The translations under genes and the position numbers were made by a program. This document shows, in pieces, positions 102 through 12,439 of a stretch of 12,542 nucleotides of DNA (positions within the stretch are counted from its first letter, which is position 1; each line of letters opens with the position of its first letter). This DNA is from a virus (Duplodnaviria > Heunggongvirae > Uroviricota > Caudoviricetes): IMG/VR virus record IMGVR_UViG_2671181050_000002; one strand, 5' to 3'. Below the pieces are notes generated by a model. The model ran no database searches, was not told the DNA's origin, and saw only the letters and a list, made by a program, of their open reading frames with translations.

Positions 102-2198
102 TTATGCAAGCCTCACAATATAGTTAAATGCGATGTTTTTGACGGTGTTTTCCGCGTTACCCGCAGCGTTAACGGTGATGGTGTGTCCATGTGAGCCAAT
201 CGCAACGGAGTGCGTATGAGCACCAATACCGACAGTATGTGCATGTGCGCCTGCGCTTGCAGCAGTGCCGGACAGCGAGTGGGTATGAGCACCATCTGAT
301 GATGTCTTCCCTGCATTACGAGTCTGGCCACTACCGCTTGTTGTGCTCATAATCCCCGCGCTTGGATTTGAAATCGCGGTATAACCATTAGGGAAAATGC
401 TCGTGTTCGTGCCACCAAATGCACCGGAACTCTTGTGTTGGTGCGCGCCGGCACTATTTGCGGTCCCGCTAATACTATGGGTATGCGCCCCGGTGTTATT
501 CGTGGATTTGGTTCCGTAATCAAACGACGATGTGGTTTTCGTCCCCAAATCCGTACTGGATGCGCTGGCGCTGTGGGTGTGCGATTTAATGCCGTCCTGT
601 TCCTGAGACAATACGGCGCGACCACTGGCAGGTTTGCCCTTAATCGTCCAGCCACGCATATCAGGGATCACGCCTGACGGATAAGCGGCTGCAAGTTTCG
701 GGTATGCAGATTTGTCAAAAGTCTGCCCCTGCATCAGGGCATAACCAGACGGAACGGTATCTGATGGCCACGGGATTGGTGCGCCGACTGGGTAGCTTTC
801 TGGTGGAAGATTTTTCGAGGTATAAACTTCTGCCCAGTCTTCCTCAAAACCATAGCCATCTCTTGAGGAACGGTAGAACAGACCTCCATTTCTGTAATGT
901 GCCTTCACCCCCTTCACCACCTTCGGCGTGTCCCAGCGCGCCAGCACCTGATATTCCCCGCTGTCTGCGGTGACTTCGGCAGTCAGGTGCTGCACCGCTG
1001 GCGGCGTGACATCATTCACCGTGCCGCTCTGGTCGCCGTCAAAGTGCGCCCCGTTATCCACGATGGCTTCTTTTTCCGGTACATGCTGCACGGCAGTGAT
1101 GGCATACGTGCCGTCATCGTTCTCACGGATACTCACACAGCGGAACAGGCGCTGACGCAACGTCGGCAACTTCAGCCCCCACACACTGTATTCTGCAACG
1201 CCGTCAGGAACCCGGTTCACTTTCACCTTAAGTCCGTCGGTGACGGACTGAACCTCCACGCTGACCGGACTCCCCTGCCCGTCAACCAGGCTTATCAGCG
1301 TGGTGCCGGAAGATGGCAGCGTGATTTCACGGTCGAGCGTCAGCGTCCGGGTCTGGCTGTTCACCGCCAGCACGCGACCACCGGTGCTGATACCGGCATA
1401 GTCATCATCGCAGATTTCAATGACATCGCCCGGTACATGGCGAAGCCCTTCAGCACCCACGCTGAAATCCACGGTCTGCGTCTCCAGCAGTTCCGTTTTA
1501 ATCAGCCACAGCCCGGCGCGGTGTGCCTGCCCCCGGCTGGTACAGCCAAAGGCATCCATCTTCGTGACATTACGACCGTAACGGGCAATGGCCTGCGTAT
1601 CTTCAACAAGCTCTGTCGCCGTCTCCCAGCCGTTGTTCGGGTCAATCCAGTTCACCTCAACGGCATTATGGCGGTCCTTCAGGGCGCTGAAGCTGTAGCG
1701 GAACGGCGCGCCATCATCCGGCATCACCACATTACTGCGGTTATAGGTCCACACCTTATCTGATGGTCGGTCCTGCACGAACGTCAGCGTCTGCCCGTTC
1801 CATACCGGCATACAGCGCATCGCCGAGCAGAAATCACTGAGCACATCCCACGCCTTACGCTGTGTGGTCAGCCAGGCATTACAGGTGATGCGCGGCTCCG
1901 TGCCGCCAAAACCATTCGGTACCAACTGGTCGCAGTACTGGCCGATGACATACAGCGTCCATTTATCCACATCTGCTGCACCAAGACGTTTCCCCATGCC
2001 GTAGCGCGGATGGGTCAGCATATCCCACAGACACCAGGCCATGTTGTTGCTGTATGCTGGCTTAAACGTTCCATCCCAGATACCGCTGTATTGCCGCGTC
2101 TGCGGGTTATAGTTCGACGGCACCTGCAGAATGCGCCCGCGCAGATGATAATTACGGCTCACCTGCTGGCTGCCGAACTGCTCCGAGTCCACCTGCAC
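102..2198 (-). pseudogene. Chimeric tail-fibre remnant: central part of host-specificity protein J (ORF aa 1-431) fused in frame to the C-terminal ~265 aa of side tail fibre Stf (GAHTHS His-box repeats, ends [11 protein letters not shown])
   Basis: 698-aa ORF from the six-frame track. Its N-terminal part ([41 protein letters not shown] ... [12 protein letters not shown]) matches the middle of lambda J as recalled; after residue ~431 it switches to Stf-like C-terminal sequence. The first codon is GTG in the middle of J sequence with no ribosome-binding site, and the upstream A fragment is in another frame. Confidence 0.7.
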
Positions 2199-3088
2199 GC
2201 CGACCAGTGCCGTGTTCGGGTATCCCCTTTCGTCTTCATCCAGTCTTTGACAATCTGCACCCAGGTGGTGAACGGGCTGTACGCCGTCCAGATGTGAAAG
2301 GTCACACTGTCCGGCGGCTCAATCTCTTCACCGGATGACGAAAACCAGAGAATGCCATCACGGGTCCAGATCCCGGTCTTTTCGCAGATATAACGGGCAT
2401 CAGTAAAGTCCAGCTCCTGCTGGCGGATGACGCAGGCATTATGCTCGCAGAGATAAAACACGCTGGAGGGGTCATCCGGCGTCCATTTGAGGCCAAACGG
2501 CGTCTCTTTGTCGCCAAATTTAAGATACTGCTCCTCCCCGCAGTGCGGGCAGGCAACATGAAAACGCATAAAATGCGGGGATTCACTGGCTGCACGCTCA
2601 ATCTGGCAGGTGCCTCTCACTTTGGGCGTGGAGCCACGGATGGACTTTGGCCAGACCGAGCCTTCAATACGCTTGTCACCCAGGAACGTCGGAGAGCCTT
2701 CCTGTTCAATATCATCATCAAAAGCAGCAAGTTCATCATAACCCGCCACATCCACCGACTTTTCACGGTAGTTTTTTGCCGCTTTACCGCCCAGGCACCA
2801 GAAGCCACGCCCATTAGTGAAACGCTTCATGGTGAGCGTGTTATCCCGGTGCTTTTTGCCATACCACGGGGCCAGCGCCAGCAGCGACGGAATATCACGA
2901 ATAGTCGGCTCAACGTGGGTTTTCATAAAGTTCTCGGCATCACCATCCGTCGGCAACCAGATAAGGGTGTTGCGCTGCTTATGCTCTATGAAGTAGGCAT
3001 AAACACCCAGCAGCATTTTGGAATAACCAACACGGGCAGACTTCACCACATTCACCTCGCGGATGTAGTCACTGCCCATCGCATTCAT
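2159..3088 (-). pseudogene. A: Terminase large subunit (gpA) internal fragment, lacking the N-terminal ~65 aa and the entire C-terminal half
   Basis: Translation (…)[67 protein letters not shown] ... [15 protein letters not shown] matches lambda gpA as recalled, then 19 out-of-frame codons derived from J sequence before the stop at 2159. An internal ATG at 3088 is the only possible start. Confidence 0.8.
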
Positions 3089-3201
3089 GATGGCCCGCTG
3101 CCACCTCCGGAGACGCAAGGGAGTCCCTGAGACTGCCAGCGTTCAATCGTTCGCGGATCCACGTTGAAAATTTCGGCAAGTTTCTTTTTATTAACCTTCA
3201 T
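3085..3201 (-). pseudogene. Terminase small subunit (Nu1-like) N-terminal stub, 38 codons
   Basis: ATG at 3201 gives [38 protein letters not shown], resembling the Nu1 N-terminal HTH region (lambda MEVNKKQLADIFGASIRTIQNWQEQGMP...). The reading frame runs into gpA-derived sequence at about 3097-3100 and stops at 3085. Confidence 0.6.
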
Positions 3202-3225: not shown

Positions 3226-3337
3226 GGTCCGACATGAAAGTGCCCGAAAATGACTTTTTTAGGCGTTTTCATGTCGGACCTTTTACGGATTCGATATTAG
3301 AAAAAACAAATAGTTATGTTCGAGAAGTACCGACATG
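3226..3337 (-). other. cosB-like region: three R-site-like repeats CATGTCGG(A/T)AC at 3226-3236, 3270-3280 (inverted) and 3327-3337
   Basis: The three 11-mers were read directly; they lie between the cosN-like site and the Nu1 start in the same R3/R2(inverted)/R1 arrangement as lambda cosB, but with a different repeat sequence. Confidence 0.55.
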
Positions 3338-3344
3338 ATTTTCC

Positions 3345-3420
3345 CCGGAAAATTTTCATAAATAGCGAAAACCCGCGCGCCTTCCGCCCCGTAACCTGTC
3401 GGATCGCCGGAAAGGACCCG
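3345..3420 (-). other. cosN/cosQ-like terminase nicking region
   Basis: Minus strand reads CCGACAGGTTACG GGGCGGAAGGCG CGCGGGTTTTCGCTATTTATGAAAATTTTCCGG. The flanks match the lambda cos sequence as recalled (…ACAGGTTACG GGGCGGCGACCT CGCGGGTTTTCGCTATTTATGAAAATTTTCCGG), but the central 6 nt of the 12-nt cohesive-end core (3378-3389) differ. Confidence 0.65.
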
Positions 3421-3588
3421 CAAAATGATAATAATTATCATCTACATGTCACAACGTGCATCTACGCCATCAAACCACGTCAAATAATCAATTATGACGC
3501 AGGTATCGTATTAATTGATCTGCATCAACTTAACGTAAAAACAACTTCAGACAATACAAATCAGCGACACTGAATACGGGGCAACCTC

Positions 3589-3822
3589 ATGTCAACGAAG
3601 AACAGAACCCGCAGAACAACAACCCGCAACATCCGCTTTCCTAACCAAATGATTGAACAAATTAACATCGCTCTTGAGCAAAAAGGGTCCGGGAATTTCT
3701 CAGCCTGGGTCATTGAAGCCTGCCGCCGGAGACTGTGCTCAGAAAAAAGAGTTTCGCCTGAAGCAAACAAAGAAAAGAGTGACATTACTGAATTGCTCAG
3801 AAAACAGGTTAGACCAGATTGA
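3589..3822 (+). CDS. Small basic protein (77 aa) with a ribbon-helix-helix-like N-terminal segment, possibly the DUF3950/YlcI-YnfO family
   Basis: ORF MSTKNRTRRTTTRNIRFPNQMIEQINIALEQKGSGNFSAWVIEACRRRL... has a beta-strand / helix / helix pattern typical of Arc/CopG-type RHH proteins. The corresponding DNA is conserved in the lambda right arm next to cos (recalled). Family name is from memory. Confidence 0.5.
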   Translation: MSTKNRTRRTTTRNIRFPNQMIEQINIALEQKGSGNFSAWVIEACRRRLCSEKRVSPEANKEKSDITELLRKQVRPD

Positions 3823-3879
3823 AGCAATTTAGATAATCGTGCAGACTACGCCCCCTCATATCACATGGAAGGTACTACA

Positions 3880-4290
3880 ATGGCTCAGGTTGCCATTTTT
3901 AAACAAATATTCGATAAAGTGCGAAATAATTTAAACTATCACTGGTTTTATTCTGAACTAAAACGTCACAATGTCTCACATTACATTTACTATTTAGCCA
4001 CAGAGAATATTCATCTTGTTCTTGAAAACGATAATACGGTTTTAATAAAAGGACAGGGTAAGGTTGTAAATGTAAGATTTTCAAAAAATAAATGCCTTAT
4101 AGAAGCCACCTTAAAAGGATTCAAATCAGGAGAGTTATCATTTTACGAATACAGGAAAAATCTTGCTACAGCAGGGGTTTTCAGATGGATTACAAATATC
4201 CACGAAAACAAAAGGTATTACTATACCTTTGATAATTCATTACTCTTTACTGAGAACATTCAGAACACTACACAAATATTTCCGCACTAA
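3880..4290 (+). CDS. AT-rich hypothetical protein (136 aa from MAQVAIF), conserved lambda right-arm ORF
   Basis: ORF intact; a recalled lambda right-arm ORF translates to a related protein (about 75 percent identity by eye) with the reading frame preserved, which suggests a real gene. Followed by hairpin GTCCGGTT-N13-AACCGGAC at 4301-4329. Confidence 0.5.
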
Positions 4291-4878
4291 ATCATAACGT
4301 CCGGTTTCTTCCGTGCCAGAACCGGACTCGCTGGCATGATGAAATATGTGTACCCGGTAACCCCGGTGTGCATCGTTTTTGATTATTCCCGCACACTCGC
4401 GCAGAAGGAGTTCCCCGTCGGGCTACGGTCTCTGTTAATACGGGAATACGGCGACGATACAGCGCATGATGTGTCAGGCTTGAATGCCTTTATCCTTTAA
4501 AAGGGATATCAGTTAAGTTATCCCGTGTAGGGTATAAGCCATTATCAAAGCCACTCTGTAGGGAATGGCTTTTGTGATGGCATCACTTACTCTTTACGCT
4601 GCTATCCCACTCATCCCGGAATTTTGATGGGTTATTGAAACCTTCTGCTGACATAACAACTCCTTCAATGTTTGGCTGAAATTAGGATGTCTTTCCATCA
4701 GTCCGCCACCACAAAGAATCTTTTTTGCCATAAGGCAGGAGGTTCATCTTTCAGTGGCTGCCGGTGTTATTTCCCCACTTACTGGCTTGGGTTGTTTCGT
4801 GGTACTGCCGTTAACTGGTGGCCCAGAATAAATTCCGGTTTCATTATCAAGCCCACCCGTAAATGGGCTTTGTAATGG

Positions 4879-5148
4879 CTACTTCACTTTTGCTTTTGCT
4901 TTTGCTTCCGCTCGCTTACGCCGGCGCTCTTCTTTCCTCTCGGCTTTTGCCATGTCCATGAATGCCTGCATGATCGAGTTCCGCATCATGTAGCTAACAA
5001 AGTGATGATTGACACAGCCGTTGAGGCGCAGCTGCTCGCCAAACTCATCCACCGAGGCCAATGCTTCCATCATGCCCTTCTCGCCTTTCATGAACTCTGA
5101 GAAGTCGCGCCCCGCTCTGGAGGCGCATTCAATGACACGATCACTCAT
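4879..5148 (-). CDS. Hypothetical protein (89 aa) with a Lys/Arg-rich C-terminal tail
   Basis: ORF MSDRVIECASRAGRDFSEF...KAERKEERRRKRAEAKAKAKVK; its ATG overlaps the stop of the upstream KilA-N ORF (ATGA), suggesting translational coupling. No homolog recognised. Confidence 0.4.
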   Translation of the reverse strand: MSDRVIECASRAGRDFSEFMKGEKGMMEALASVDEFGEQLRLNGCVNHHFVSYMMRNSIMQAFMDMAKAERKEERRRKRAEAKAKAKVK

Positions 5149-5641
5149 CCCGGAAGCCCGGGGATCGTAATCTGCAGCTGGTTAGCCAGGGAGTTAATCT
5201 CAGCGACCAACACTGGCTTCGTATAGCGCCATGCTGCCAGCCCTTGTCCGCAGAAGCTCGCCATGTCTTTCTTCTGGTCAAACTCATGACATTTCATGTT
5301 GAGCTGCGCACTTAAGCTGTTGCGATGCTGAAGTTCTCCGGTGAAGTAGTCATCGAGGACTTTATAGGCCGCGTACTTGAACCCGGGGTTTAACCAAGCC
5401 GCATAATCGTAAGCAACAAACTTCCCGCCATATGTTCCACCGTGTACACCGCGCTCAGTAAAAACCACAGATTCGTGGTTTTTCTCCAGCTCGGCTAAGA
5501 ACTCTTTGGTCTGCTTGTTTCGCAGGTAGTGGTAAGGCGATTCAGATTCACTTTTACCACTGGCTTTCCACATACAGTGAGGCAGATCATGCCATCTTCA
5601 CCGATACGAATTGGTTGATTGAAGAGGGTTAATGATTTCAT
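5145..5641 (-). pseudogene. KilA-N domain protein with an apparent -1 frameshift near 5571-5576; intact downstream ORF is 5145..5573 (142 aa)
   Basis: The 142-aa ORF contains KilA-N/APSES-like motifs (SPYHYLRNKQTKEFLAELEK ... GGTYGGKFVAYDYAAWLNPGF). The expected N-terminal strand MKSLTLFNQPIRIGEDGMICLT is encoded from ATG 5641 in a different frame and stops after 47 codons. Confidence 0.5.
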
Positions 5642-5842: not shown

Positions 5843-6301
5843 TTATTTCAGGCATTGCGTCCTGATGTATTCCTGCAGGTAGTTAACCTGCGCGGTTATC
5901 TTGTCGATTCCACTTCGGAGACGGTAATAATTGAGTTCAGCATCTGCTGTAAGTCCTGGGCTTTCTCCATCGCCCATGCCGCTGGCTCCGGTCGTTGACT
6001 TTGCACAGGTGGCGGCGACTTGCAGGCGCTTACGCCCAGCAGAAACATCAGCACGGAGACTTTCGATAGTCGCGTTAGCATCAGCAAGCTCCTTTGTGTA
6101 TCTTGCGTCGAGTTCTGCTACATCACGTTGACGCTTCCGCATGTCAGCGATGGTGGCGTTCGCCTTCTCCAGTTCTCTGGCATTTTTGTCGCGCTGGGCT
6201 TTGTAGGTAATGGCGTTATCACGGTAATGATTAACAGCCCATGACAGGCAGACGATGATGCAGATAACCAGAGCGGAGATAATCGCGGTTACTCTGTTCA
6301 T
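5843..6301 (-). CDS. rzpD: Spanin inner-membrane subunit Rz
   Basis: [45 protein letters not shown]... has an N-terminal TM helix and coiled-coil region typical of Rz. The ATG at 6301 overlaps the endolysin stop (ATGA). Confidence 0.8.
5896..6087 (-). CDS. rzoD: Spanin outer-membrane lipoprotein Rz1, nested in the +1 frame of Rz
   Basis: ORF wholly inside Rz in another frame; signal peptide ending in a lipobox-like LLGVSAC followed by a Pro-rich mature part ([16 protein letters not shown]...). Exact start (M1 or M3) uncertain. Confidence 0.65.
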
Positions 6302-6795
6302 TGCTGACCCCACAAACAGATTTCACGCTCAATCTCACGACGAGTCATGAGACCTTTCCATTGCTTACCGCCAGCATATGTCCAGCGACGTAGCTGATCA
6401 CATGCGCCTTTGATATCGCCCTGGTTTATTTTGCGAAGAAGTGTCGATGTTCTGAAATTGCCAGCGCCCACGTTGTAAACGAACGAGTAAAGAGCGCCGC
6501 GCGTTGTTTCCGGTATATCAACTTTTATGTACGGGTTAATTTGTCTGGCGACCGTGGCAAGGTCTTTATTCAGGAGGGCTTTGCATTCTGCTTTGGTATA
6601 CGTTTTACCGAGCATGATGTCTTTTCCTGTATGCCCGTGACATACAGTCCATACACCAACAATATCTTTGTATGGTATGTAGCTGACACCTTCCAGACCA
6701 TCGTTACCACTTGGGCCAGTGATTAACACTGATGCTATAGCAATTGCTCCGCCACCAATAGCAGCAGCAACGGCTTTTCGTAATGATGGAGGCAT
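6298..6795 (-). CDS. rrrD: SAR endolysin (lysozyme R, phage 21 type)
   Basis: 165 aa, N-terminal Gly/Ala-rich signal-anchor-release segment ([20 protein letters not shown]) followed by a T4-lysozyme-like catalytic region; matches the R21/RrrD sequence as recalled. Confidence 0.85.
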
Positions 6796-7010
6796 TATTC
6801 ACCTCTCGCAGCCTTGCGCTTATCTTCTTTAATCTTGAAATAAAGGTTTGTCAGGTACGTCAGCAGGCCAAATACCAGGCTACCCAGCACACCTATTGCT
6901 GCCCACTGTGAGGGCGTGACTTTATCGAGCAGCTGTAAAAACCAGTACCCGGCACTACCTGCTGAGGTGCCATAGGCGACACCCGTTGTTAACTTATCCA
7001 TGGATTTCAT
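6795..7010 (-). CDS. essD: Pinholin S (phage 21 type) with dual-start motif MKSM
   Basis: 71 aa, [71 protein letters not shown], two TM helices; stop overlaps the endolysin start by 1 nt (TGATG); GAGGTG upstream of the start. Confidence 0.85.
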
Positions 7011-7583: not shown

Positions 7584-8666
7584 ATGAAAAAATTAACAGT
7601 GGCAATTTCTGCTGTAGCTGCATCAGTACTGATGGCGATGTCTGCTCAGGCAGCTGAAATTTATAATAAAGACAGTAACAAGCTGGATCTGTACGGGAAA
7701 GTTAATGCTAAGCACTACTTCTCCTCTAATGATGCAGATGATGGTGATACTACTTATGCCCGTCTTGGCTTCAAAGGTGAAACCCAAATCAACGATCAAC
7801 TGACTGGTTTCGGTCAGTGGGAATATGAATTCAAAGGCAACCGCGCTGAATCTCAAGGTTCCTCCAAAGATAAAACCCGTCTTGCCTTCGCTGGCCTGAA
7901 ATTCGGTGACTACGGCTCCATCGATTACGGCCGTAACTACGGTGTAGCATACGACATCGGTGCATGGACCGACGTTCTGCCAGAATTCGGTGGCGATACC
8001 TGGACCCAAACAGATGTATTCATGACTGGTCGCACCACAGGTGTTGCAACTTATCGTAACAACGACTTCTTTGGTCTGGTTGATGGCCTGAACTTTGCAG
8101 CTCAGTATCAGGGCAAAAATGACCGAAATGAAGTAACTGAAGCTAATGGCGATGGTTTCGGTTTCTCAACTACTTATGAGTATGAAGGATTCGGCGTGGG
8201 TGCAACCTATGCTAAATCTGATCGCACTAATAATCAGGTTATCTACGGTAACAACGGTCTGAATGCTTCTGGTCAAAATGCTGAAGTATGGGCAGCTGGT
8301 CTGAAATATGATGCGAACAACATCTATCTGGCCACCACCTATTCTGAAACCCAGAACATGACTGTTTTTGGTAATAACCATATTGCCAACAAAGCACAAA
8401 ACTTCGAAGCTGTTGCACAATATCAGTTCGACTTCGGCCTGCGTCCATCCGTTGCTTACCTGCATTCTAAAGGAAAAGACTTGGGTGTTTGGGGTGATCA
8501 GGACCTGGTTGAATATGTTGATGTAGGTGCAACCTATTACTTCAACAAAAATATGTCCACTTTTGTTGACTACAAAATCAACCTGATTGATAAGAGCGAT
8601 TTCACGAAAGCATCTGGCGTTGCTACCGATGATATCGTTGCTGTAGGTATGGTTTACCAGTTCTAA
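7584..8666 (+). CDS. nmpC: Outer-membrane porin, NmpC/OmpD-like (OmpC/OmpF/PhoE family), apparently intact
   Basis: 360 aa; signal peptide [23 protein letters not shown] then AEIYNKD...; C-terminal VGMVYQF typical of general porins; closely matches DLP12 NmpC as recalled. Confidence 0.85.
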
Positions 8667-10550: not shown

Positions 10551-11074
10551 GCCGCCCTCCTGACGCCCTGCCCGATCGCCATCAATGCCGCTTTGGATAC
10601 GGTAGTAAACATCCGTCGAGGACTGATGAACGGTCGCCAAATCAGCAGCATGGAGCCTTTGCTGTTTCCCTTCTTCTCCAGCCCTGTCGATGGTTCGATA
10701 AAATTAATCCGTCCATCAGTGATAATGCGAACTTCGTCGACACTCTCCAGAGCCTTGCTGAACCATCCGACTGACATATCCTCTGGCACAAGCATAACTA
10801 CCGTCTGTCGCTGTTGTATGCACTGCTCAGCGGCTTTTTCCACCCACGGCCTGATATTGCTGTACGGTGGGTTATTCCAGATTGCACCGTGGCTTACCCA
10901 CTCAGAATTGAGCGCGTCGTCGGCCTCAGTTAGCCAGTGAGCACACAGAGCATTTTTGTCGCTCGCTGCCGAATCCAGCCAGAATCCAAACTCAATATCC
11001 AGTGCATCAAAAAGCCAAAGCGGCGTTTGCCAGCAGTCCTTGTCGTGTGCTGGCGTATTTGATTTGATAGTCAT
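10547..11074 (-). CDS. Phage-type orphan DNA N6-adenine methyltransferase (Dam family), 175 aa
   Basis: From [31 protein letters not shown]...; catalytic NPPY motif ([14 protein letters not shown]); ATG overlaps the ninB stop (ATGA). No adjacent restriction endonuclease gene. Confidence 0.75.
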
Positions 11075-11511
11075 GCAGCCCGATCTCCCCATCTCGCTTT
11101 CCACTCCAGAGCCAGTCTCGCTTCGTCTGACCACTTAACGCCACGCTCTGTACCGAATGCCTGTATAAGCTCTAATAGCTCCGCAAATTCGCCTACACGC
11201 ATCCTGCTGGTTGACTGGCCTATTACCACAAAGCCATTCCCGGCAAGGTTAGGAACAACATCCTGCTGCTTTAATGCTGCGGTAAACACACACTTCCAGC
11301 TTTCTGCATCCAGCCAGCGACCATGCCATTCAACCTGACGAGAGACGTCACCTAAGCAGGCCCATAGCTTCCTGTTTTGGTCTAAGCTGCGGTTGCGTTC
11401 CTGAATGGTTACTACGATTGGTTTGGTTGGGTCTGGAAGGATTTGCTGTACTGCGTGAATAGCGTTTTGCTGATGTGCTGGAGATCGAATTTCAAAGGTT
11501 AGTTTTTTCAT
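11071..11511 (-). CDS. ninB: Recombination protein NinB (Orf family)
   Basis: 146 aa from MKKLTFEIRSPAHQQNAIHAVQQILPDPTKPIVVTIQERNRSLDQNRKLWACLGDVSRQVEWHGRWLDAESWKCVF..., matching lambda NinB as recalled; GGGAGAGGGAAG upstream of the ATG at 11511. Confidence 0.85.
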   Translation of the reverse strand: MKKLTFEIRSPAHQQNAIHAVQQILPDPTKPIVVTIQERNRSLDQNRKLWACLGDVSRQVEWHGRWLDAESWKCVFTAALKQQDVVPNLAGNGFVVIGQSTSRMRVGEFAELLELIQAFGTERGVKWSDEARLALEWKARWGDRAA

Positions 11512-11526
11512 GACTTCCCTCTCCCC

Positions 11527-11559
11527 CAAATAAAAAGGCCTGCGATTACCAGCAGGCCT
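11527..11559 (-). terminator. tR2-like intrinsic terminator upstream of ninB
   Basis: Hairpin AGGCCTGC-N8-GCAGGCCT (11536-11559) followed on the minus strand by TTTTATTTGG; it occupies the position of lambda tR2 (between ren and ninB). Confidence 0.45.
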
Positions 11560-11653: not shown

Positions 11654-12439
11654 ATGAGTACAGCACTCGCAACGCTGGCAGGGAAGCTGGCTGAACGTGT
11701 CGGCATGGATTCTGTCGACCCACAGGAACTGATCACCACTCTTCGCCAGACGGCATTTAAAGGCGATGCCAGCGATGCGCAGTTCATCGCATTGTTGATC
11801 GTCGCCAACCAGTACGGCCTTAATCCGTGGACGAAAGAAATTTACGCCTTCCCTGACAAGCAGAACGGCATCGTTCCGGTGGTGGGCGTTGATGGCTGGT
11901 CCCGTATCATCAATGAAAACCAGCAGTTTGATGGCATGGACTTTGAGCAGGACAATGAATCCTGCACATGCCGGATTTACCGCAAGGACCGTAATCATCC
12001 GATCTGCGTTACCGAGTGGATGGATGAATGCCGCCGCGAACCATTCAAAACCCGCGAAGGCAGAGAAATCACGGGGCCGTGGCAGTCGCATCCCAAACGG
12101 ATGTTACGTCATAAAGCCATGATTCAGTGTGCCCGTCTGGCCTTCGGATTTGCTGGTATCTATGACAAGGATGAAGCCGAGCGCATTGTCGAAAATACTG
12201 CATACACTGCAGAACGTCAGCCAGAACGCGACATCACTCCGGTTAACGATGAAACCATGCAGGAGATTAACACTCTGCTGATCGCCCTGGATAAAACATG
12301 GGATGACGACTTATTGCCGCTCTGTTCCCAGATATTTCGCCGCGACATTCGCGCATCGTCAGAACTGACACAGGCCGAAGCAGTGAAAGCTCTTGGATTC
12401 CTGAAACAGAAAGCCACTGAGCAGAAGGTGGCAGCATGA
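11654..12439 (+). CDS. bet: Single-strand annealing protein Bet (Red beta)
   Basis: 261 aa [84 protein letters not shown]..., essentially the lambda Bet sequence as recalled. Confidence 0.9.

Follow-up and report, generated by a model that had tools for sequence, protein, structure and literature searches.

A DUF3950–DUF1398 gene pair beside cos in a lambdoid prophage: two constrained genes, a predicted ribbon-helix-helix protein and a possible accessory cassette

What is the role of two intact genes that lie next to the packaging site of a lambdoid prophage, on the strand opposite to its late operon? The stretch analysed here, referred to as the window, comprises 12,542 nucleotides (nt) of a virus of the Caudoviricetes (IMG/VR record IMGVR_UViG_2671181050_000002). 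It is a lambdoid prophage in the orientation opposite to the lambda map. Two open reading frames (ORFs), ORF1 and ORF2, lie between cos and the KilA-N and lysis genes and run antisense to the late operon. Both are constrained coding genes, and the pair is a widespread Escherichia coli and Shigella prophage gene set that is already known and annotated. The first gene is predicted to encode a ribbon-helix-helix (RHH) protein that may control a small accessory cassette, with the second gene as its cargo. The two ORFs are as follows.

3589-3822, plus strand: ORF1, ATG start, 77 amino acids (aa); YlcI/YnfO family (Pfam DUF3950), with ynfO of the Qin prophage as the nearest K-12 counterpart.
3880-4290, plus strand: ORF2, 136 aa, AT-rich; DUF1398 / YdfO-YbcV family.

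Both ORFs are intact at the position and with the lengths given by the initial annotation, and the ORF1 sequence quoted there is present exactly. The families that it proposed, DUF3950 and DUF1398, are also correct. ORF1 matches DUF3950 (PF13132) at E 2.8e-21 with 75.6 bits (cut-off 25), belongs to the NCBIfam family YlcI_YnfO_N (NF041551; 36.7 bits, cut-off 30) and matches PHROG 949. ORF2 matches DUF1398 (PF07166) at E 3.3e-43 with 147 bits (cut-off 22) over all 119 model positions. It also matches PDB 2HH8 (E 1.4e-69, residues 1-140), the nuclear magnetic resonance structure of E. coli YdfO, a small soluble protein deposited as hypothetical. The ORF2 frame is open from an ATG at 3865, which would give 141 aa; the ATG at 3880 has the better ribosome-binding site, a GAAGG Shine-Dalgarno sequence about 8 nt upstream, and the resulting length of 136 aa is used by most records. 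The two ORFs are separated by 57 nt. The AT-richness reported for ORF2 is confirmed by a G+C (GC) content of 31.4% (local range 28-35%) in a window of 48.4%. All late genes are on the minus strand and both ORFs are on the plus strand, as had been described. The six-frame list of the window contains many ORFs of such length, so support for the two genes rests on homology and selection. No family backs the 88-aa antisense ORF (3561-3827) that fully overlaps ORF1.

The pair is abundant in public data. The exact ORF1 and ORF2 proteins each occur, under their family names, on at least 1000 public contigs, Shigella sonnei Ss046 among them, and the 702-nt pair was matched, whole or in part, in 3800 of 5426 complete E. 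coli genomes, at up to 12 places per genome. An identical cassette lies beside intact Nu1 and A genes in the inducible phages PhiR49_1, ev099 and Chlobot. Finding the pair is in itself of little consequence: it is among the commonest unassigned E. coli prophage gene sets, with two named families and one solved structure. The K-12 Qin genes ynfO-ydfO have the same families, order, adjacency and strand relation, with 88% DNA identity across all 702 nt, and differ from the window pair only as alleles. Counterparts of both genes were expected in lambda, and both exist there with their frames kept, on the same strand and in the same place between the lysis genes and cos. The lambda counterpart of ORF1 is a 64-aa ORF next to cos that carries no annotation in NC_001416. 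That of ORF2 forms the last 136 codons of lambdap78, which is annotated as 177 aa from a GTG start. An identity to lambda of about 75-85% had been claimed for both ORFs and holds for ORF2 alone (83.2% at the DNA level). Identity is 95.5% from cosN to the start of ORF1 and 98.6% over ORF1 codons 1-49, and the ORF1 tail (codons 50-77) is unrelated to that of lambda. Lambda differs further in having about 0.5 kb of extra DNA between the two ORFs, which carries the antisense ybcW-like gene lambdap79 (lambda 47738-47944) and has no counterpart in the window. The ylcI-ybcW-ybcV genes of DLP12 have the same position and strand as the window pair and, like lambda, an antisense ybcW-like gene in between. 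Both lambda and DLP12 have a different ORF1 tail (64 aa) and carry bor downstream, where the window has a third small ORF and the KilA-N gene.

Purifying selection on both ORFs, as first suggested from the preserved frame, is borne out by ratios of nonsynonymous to synonymous divergence (dN/dS, or omega). For the ORF1 core (codons 1-49) compared with alleles from Shiga toxin (Stx) phages, dS is 0.69-1.56, dN is 0.045-0.055 and dN/dS is 0.03-0.08; for ORF2 compared with lambda-type alleles and a third allele class, omega is 0.21-0.37. These values indicate that the plus strand is coding and constrained. They bear directly on an explanation in which the ORFs are not selected as genes and persist through recent spread, or because the DNA near cos is needed in cis. 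Over the DNA that extends from cosN to the end of ORF1 codon 49, identity to lambda is 95-99%, and such a block could be cis-acting or recently exchanged. This explanation is nevertheless very improbable and is already contradicted by dN/dS: synonymous divergence in the ORF1 core reaches 0.7-1.6 with dN near 0.05, ORF2 is constrained at the omega given above, and the reading frame is kept in homologues at 35-57% identity across Enterobacterales. ORF1 proteins that are 97-100% identical to that of the window accompany ORF2 alleles that are only about 80% identical, which is evidence of recombination between ORF1 and ORF2. Both genes of the pair have survived intact here and in K-12, although the prophages are heavily decayed.

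The initial annotation attributed an Arc/CopG-like RHH signature to the 77-aa protein. Three segments of ORF1 are relevant to this claim.

3589-3624, plus strand: basic N-terminal arm, long and rich in T and R.
3625-3750, plus strand: predicted RHH core, residues 13-54 (RNIRFP, helix 19-32, turn KGSGN, helix 37-54), based on the AlphaFold2 (AF2) model, fold searches, register with Arc and conservation.
3736-3822, plus strand: variable C-terminal tail, codons 50-77, with a mosaic junction; unrelated to the lambda tail, and tails differ within the family.

DUF3950 is a small family for which an exhaustive search gave 117 cluster representatives, centred on Enterobacterales. Its conserved core follows the pattern x-I-R-F-P-x-x-L-I-E-x-I ... 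N-F-S-A-W-V-I-E-A-C, in which I15, R16 and V41 are invariant and F17, F37, A39, A44 and C45 are nearly so. An AF2 model of ORF1 from 22 sequences is of moderate quality (pLDDT 67.7; 75-82 in the core) and contains an extended segment R13-P18, a helix at 19-32, a turn, a second helix at 37-54 and a disordered tail of low confidence. Three fold searches with this model retrieved RHH proteins almost exclusively, with weak scores, and most of the structural neighbours are antitoxins (ParD, MazE, VapB, RelB, TacA and KacA). An hhalign comparison with P22 Arc places N-I-R-F-P over N-L-R-W-P (P 0.014, not significant), so that R13-N14-I15-R16-F17-P18 is aligned to Arc F-N-L-R-W-P and the turn K-G-S-G-N-F-S precedes helix 37-54; the comparison with Mnt gave P 0.23, which is also not significant. 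ORF1 has the strand-residue pattern and the G-x-S/T/N turn of RHH proteins, and neither sequence nor profile comparison gave a significant match to any curated RHH family. In Arc, the Asn and Arg of the strand read the operator. ORF1 resembles the Arc/Mnt/CopG repressors (P22 Arc, plasmid CopG) in size, in its predicted strand-helix-turn-helix layout, in the G-x-x-N/S turn that precedes helix B and in an N-x-R-x-P strand motif, which is in register with that of Arc. It differs from these repressors in its long T/R-rich N-terminal arm and variable tail, and in that its RHH role is a prediction. The claimed signature is upheld by the fold model and fold searches and not by sequence statistics, and none of the individual fold or profile matches reaches significance. 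Taken together, the model-based evidence makes an RHH fold for ORF1 likely; dimerisation and DNA binding would be expected of such a fold. Placing DUF3950 in the RHH class at fold level offers a concrete experiment, namely a search for its operator.

The explanation that we favour, with about an even chance of being correct, is that ORF1 is an RHH repressor that controls a small accessory cassette expressed from the prophage, with ORF2 as its cargo. ORF1 would be a small DNA-binding protein whose R-N-I-R-F-P segment pairs with that of a second subunit to form a DNA-reading beta-ribbon. The dimer would repress its own short, leftward-facing cassette, made up of ORF1, ORF2 and perhaps a 54-aa ORF3, which lies within the late operon in antisense orientation, with the lysis genes on one side and cos on the other. 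The AT-rich, DUF1398/YdfO-type ORF2 would be dispensable for lytic growth and probably expressed from the prophage, as bor is in the same region of lambda, and Q-driven late transcription would oppose it during late growth. Autoregulation, expression in lysogens and any role for ORF2 are thus parts of a proposed mechanism. ORF2 has a cargo signature in its composition (GC 31% compared with 48%) and in its distribution (43 phage records compared with 155 for DUF3950). With lambdap78, it shows the features of a moron, namely deviant composition and dispensability for phage growth. The lambda morons bor and lom, which are expressed from the prophage, are likewise non-essential late-region inserts of deviant base composition, and bor also runs antisense to late transcription. 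The cassette is retained in cryptic prophages and differs from bor and lom in that its promoter, terminator and lysogen expression are putative. The following features flank the pair.

3487-3519, 70-100 nt upstream of ORF1: inverted repeat ATCAATTAtgACG-N7-CGtaTTAATTGAT, identical in lambda.
3810-3837, plus strand, within the end of ORF1: weak sigma-70-like site, TAGACC-16-GATAAT.
4299-4327, just past ORF2: hairpin GTCCGGTT-N13-AACCGGAC (arms 4299-4306 and 4320-4327), kept in lambda, with no T-run and a z-score of -1.8.
4336-4500, plus strand: 54-aa ORF3, co-oriented and directly past the ORF2 hairpin; hypothetical in ev099 and PhiR49_1.

The only signals of the cassette itself are the weak promoter-like site, which could give ORF2 its own promoter and is no more than a lead, and the hairpin, which lacks a T-run and is not a canonical terminator. 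This hairpin is all that the 3' part of the initially annotated span (4291-4330) contains. Promoter and terminator scans of the region gave no more sites than shuffled sequence. The inverted repeat upstream of ORF1 (RNA-fold z-score -1.6) is a candidate operator by position and symmetry. It is invariant in all relatives and is uninformative as an operator test because there is no variation among them. ORF3 may be a third cassette gene and has no family match; it occupies the place that bor has in lambda.

Several results count against ORF1 as an RHH autorepressor of this cassette. The beta-strand is unformed in the monomer model, the family profile has no match among PDB sequences, and only one of 39 members touches a Pfam RHH model (RHH_6, E 0.09). 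No convincing sigma-70 promoter lies upstream of ORF1 and no phage-type operator was identified; k-mers shared by lambda-type and Stx-type flanks are at chance level and give no common motif. The box motif that precedes satellite DUF3950 genes, described below, is absent from the window, and those boxes might be bound by another protein.

Whether the two genes form a unit can be judged from their linkage. At every Escherichia, Shigella and lambda locus fetched, DUF3950 is followed by DUF1398 on the same strand. DUF1398 was found within 5 kb of DUF3950 at none of 42 divergent loci from other Enterobacterales, with a shallow hidden Markov model. Among deposited phages, 155 carry DUF3950 and 43 carry DUF1398. 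In Stx-converting phages, DUF3950 stands alone, antisense, between the KilA-N/lysis block and HNH-TerS-TerL. DUF3950 is the constant element and DUF1398 is optional AT-rich cargo, not an obligate partner. These observations matter for the possibility of a type II toxin-antitoxin-like pair, in which ORF1 would serve as RHH antitoxin and autorepressor and neutralise ORF2 through its variable tail, and the DUF1398 protein would be a toxin or abortive-infection effector. The RHH gene does come first, with the 57-nt gap to ORF2, its structural neighbours are mostly antitoxins, its tail is disordered and variable, and there is a weak HicB-like PHROG match (E 0.009). Linkage is not obligate, however, given the unequal phage records and the presence of DUF3950 alone in Stx phages, satellites and the 42 loci. 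In lambda, the two genes lie about 0.5 kb apart with an antisense gene between them, and ORF1 and ORF2 alleles reassort, which a specific fit between tail and toxin would resist. The non-obligate pairing, the lambda spacer and the allele reassortment together argue against a toxin-antitoxin pair. PADLOC gave no match for ORF1 and only a chance-level Csx23 match for ORF2 (E 0.025), and toxicity is unreported in the literature searched. We consider such a pair unlikely.

A cargo role for ORF2 also has to be set against its existing labels. RefSeq, PHROG 413 and some GenBank records would make it a virion protein, as 'head protein' (lambdap78, phrog_413) or 'putative envelope protein', and this annotation is all that speaks for a virion role. 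The gene runs opposite to the late operon and does not belong to the head gene block, lambdap78 is non-essential in lambda, most phages with the neighbouring genes lack DUF1398, ORF2 is kept in prophages that have lost all head genes, and the solved homologue YdfO is the small soluble protein mentioned above. A virion role has next to no chance of being right, and the 'head' and 'envelope protein' labels are unsupported by position, strand, essentiality or distribution. An AF2 model of ORF2 from a 15-sequence alignment (pLDDT 46.8) was too poor for a fold search, and the DUF1398 fold is therefore known from PDB 2HH8 alone.

No function of the DUF3950 or DUF1398 families is reported in the literature searched, which holds several scattered observations on individual genes. 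Expression of ydfO is strongly induced by ionic liquid (PMC4077768). Transcripts of ybcV and ybcW are down about 10-fold in a pdhR mutant, and ybcV is PdhR-dependent (PMC7660256). The transcripts of ybcW and ylcI converge and overlap (PMC12288877). In lambda, CRISPR interference found lambdap78 non-essential and lambdap79 'essential' (PMC10695390). The latter call contradicts older genetics and likely comes from a polar block because lambdap79 is co-oriented with the late transcript. Two further reports were set aside. The often-made claim that overexpression of YdfO confers protection from peroxide or oxidative stress (PMC4077768) is a mis-citation, since the source (PMC3105296) names YfdK, YfdO and YfdS of CPS-53 and never ydfO. 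The 'essential' status of ydfO in transposon-directed insertion-site sequencing (PMC5821084) concerns an AT-rich gene with paralogues and is probably an artefact. Two annotation errors, the 'head protein' label and the YdfO/YfdO mix-up, are cleared in this way.

The wider DUF3950 family extends into satellites. Many divergent members lie in satellites that resemble phage-inducible chromosomal islands (PICIs) or are embedded in helpers, where they stand between int/alpA and the primase operon and diverge from that operon. The zone between alpA and the replication genes is the regulatory 'Bro zone' of Tommasini et al., who omit DUF3950. Satellites carry one or two DUF3950 paralogues, and two kinds of feature were recorded there.

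About 200 nt upstream of the DUF3950 start: box arrays, at loci L129, L132, L137-L139, L143, L144, L146, L147, L153, L154, L156, L159, L161 and L088.
L084 6001-6363 and L088 4714-5103, between alpA and the primase operon: DUF3950-Terminase_2 fusions, without the oligomerisation part.

In the arrays, 14-bp GGTG-N6-CAC(C/G) boxes occupy fixed places near -100, -77 and -31; their inner bases vary from lineage to lineage, and a conserved GC hairpin is found farther upstream. This arrangement resembles a set of operators for the divergent promoter of the satellites. In one satellite paralogue, two TGGTACGTACCA palindromes take the place of the boxes, and the second overlaps the start codon. In the two fusion proteins (120 and 129 aa), DUF3950 is joined to the N-terminal DNA-binding part of a Terminase_2 small terminase (model positions 1-53); no description of such fusions was found in the literature searched. 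Satellite DUF3950 proteins share the domain with ORF1 at 35-50% identity, and their genes, like ORF1, lie antisense to a long operon or diverge from one. They differ from ORF1 in having box arrays upstream, in lacking a DUF1398 partner and in their occasional small-terminase fusions. Other DUF3950 genes occur singly, next to a range of cargo genes such as sopB/pipD, TraG, ABC transporters and metabolic genes. In Salmonella enterica subsp. diarizonae and arizonae (L130 and L131; 4995-5171), a 58-aa homologue lies between IpgD/SopB-family and Peptidase_C69 (PipD-like) genes and appears to be inside pathogenicity island SPI-5. A match to a 'transcriptional repressor' of the Pasteurella element Pmp7 was dropped; it lies antisense to the gene so annotated.

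These contexts bear on a role in packaging or in satellite biology, in which the RHH protein would bind DNA in the vicinity of cos or the terminase genes, or cross-talk with homologous PICI-type regulators, and would modulate packaging, late read-through, or satellite induction and interference. The phage gene always abuts the start of a packaging module (cos-Nu1-A in lambda types, HNH-TerS-TerL in Stx types), and the satellites carry DUF3950 paralogues, including the small-terminase fusions. Yet a near-invariant core protein is found next to packaging modules and cos sites that are unrelated to one another, lambda-type and Stx-type flanks share no DNA motif, the gene runs against late transcription, relatives are also present outside phages, for example in SPI-5, and no such role has been assigned in the literature searched. 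A small, portable DNA-binding regulator accounts for the varied contexts better than a factor dedicated to packaging does. We regard a packaging or satellite role as doubtful, with a small chance of being correct. The suggestion that ORF1 acts beside the packaging site stands as a statement of position and goes no further, given the unrelated modules that the core protein flanks and its relatives outside phages. A broader proposal is that DUF3950 is a regulatory currency shared by lambdoid phages and satellites, whose copies recognise related operators or each other. The phage protein would then influence satellite induction or packaging interference, or a satellite fusion would block helper packaging. 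This proposal is improbable, and the evidence allows a phage-satellite link without favouring it. If true, it would reveal an unstudied layer of helper-satellite regulation.

The surroundings of the pair are those of a decayed late region. The Q, holin, lysozyme, Rz and KilA-N genes are all on the minus strand (9253-5145), and a lambda cos sequence is recognisable at about 3340-3400.

6795-7010, minus strand: holin gene.
6298-6795, minus strand: lysozyme gene.
5843-6313, minus strand: Rz gene.
5145-5573, minus strand: KilA-N gene.
3378-3389: 12-nt cohesive-end segment of cosN, reading GGGCGGAAGGCG on the late strand and GGGCGGCGACCT in lambda, with five of 12 positions different.

The cosN of the window may have lost its function or belong to a different cos type; the lambda sequence is present at cosN in PhiR49_1 and 2H10, two phages with the same cassette. 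Further remnants on the minus strand are what is left of the terminase A gene (2159-3118, truncated) and of a J/stf tail gene (102-2198). All head genes and most tail genes have been lost. The terminase A gene has lost some 55 codons at its N-terminal end as well as the C-terminal part, and it continues into the middle of the J/stf tail gene. A Nu1 start of phage-21/DLP12 type at about 3120-3200 reaches a stop after about 38 codons. At the other end of the window, bet (11654-12439, plus strand) directly abuts ninB (11071-11529, minus strand), which shows that the immunity and replication regions have been deleted. A complete OmpC/NmpC-type porin gene (7584-8666, plus strand) between Q and the holin gene is a second antisense accessory gene in the late region. 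An 85-aa plus-strand ORF (3316-3573) spans cosN, and its counterpart in ev099 (gp73) is annotated as a partial gene; it is probably not a gene, and in virion DNA it would be split. No Rfam RNA family matched within the window.

Lambda-like records also contribute noise to surveys of this pair. Many apparent homologues from unrelated taxa (Streptomyces, Cohnella, Pedobacter, Pseudomonas and others) match the right end of lambda at 99.8-100% identity, and are often 3.5-kb contigs that start 15 nt from the lambda end. They are lambda control DNA, probably the nanopore control strand, left in assemblies. The phage records OR974318-25 and MW057783 are among the lambda-like entries, as is 'Campylobacter phage CJLB-4' (48.4 kb). 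The pair is present in lambda itself and hence on every Oxford Nanopore lambda control read.

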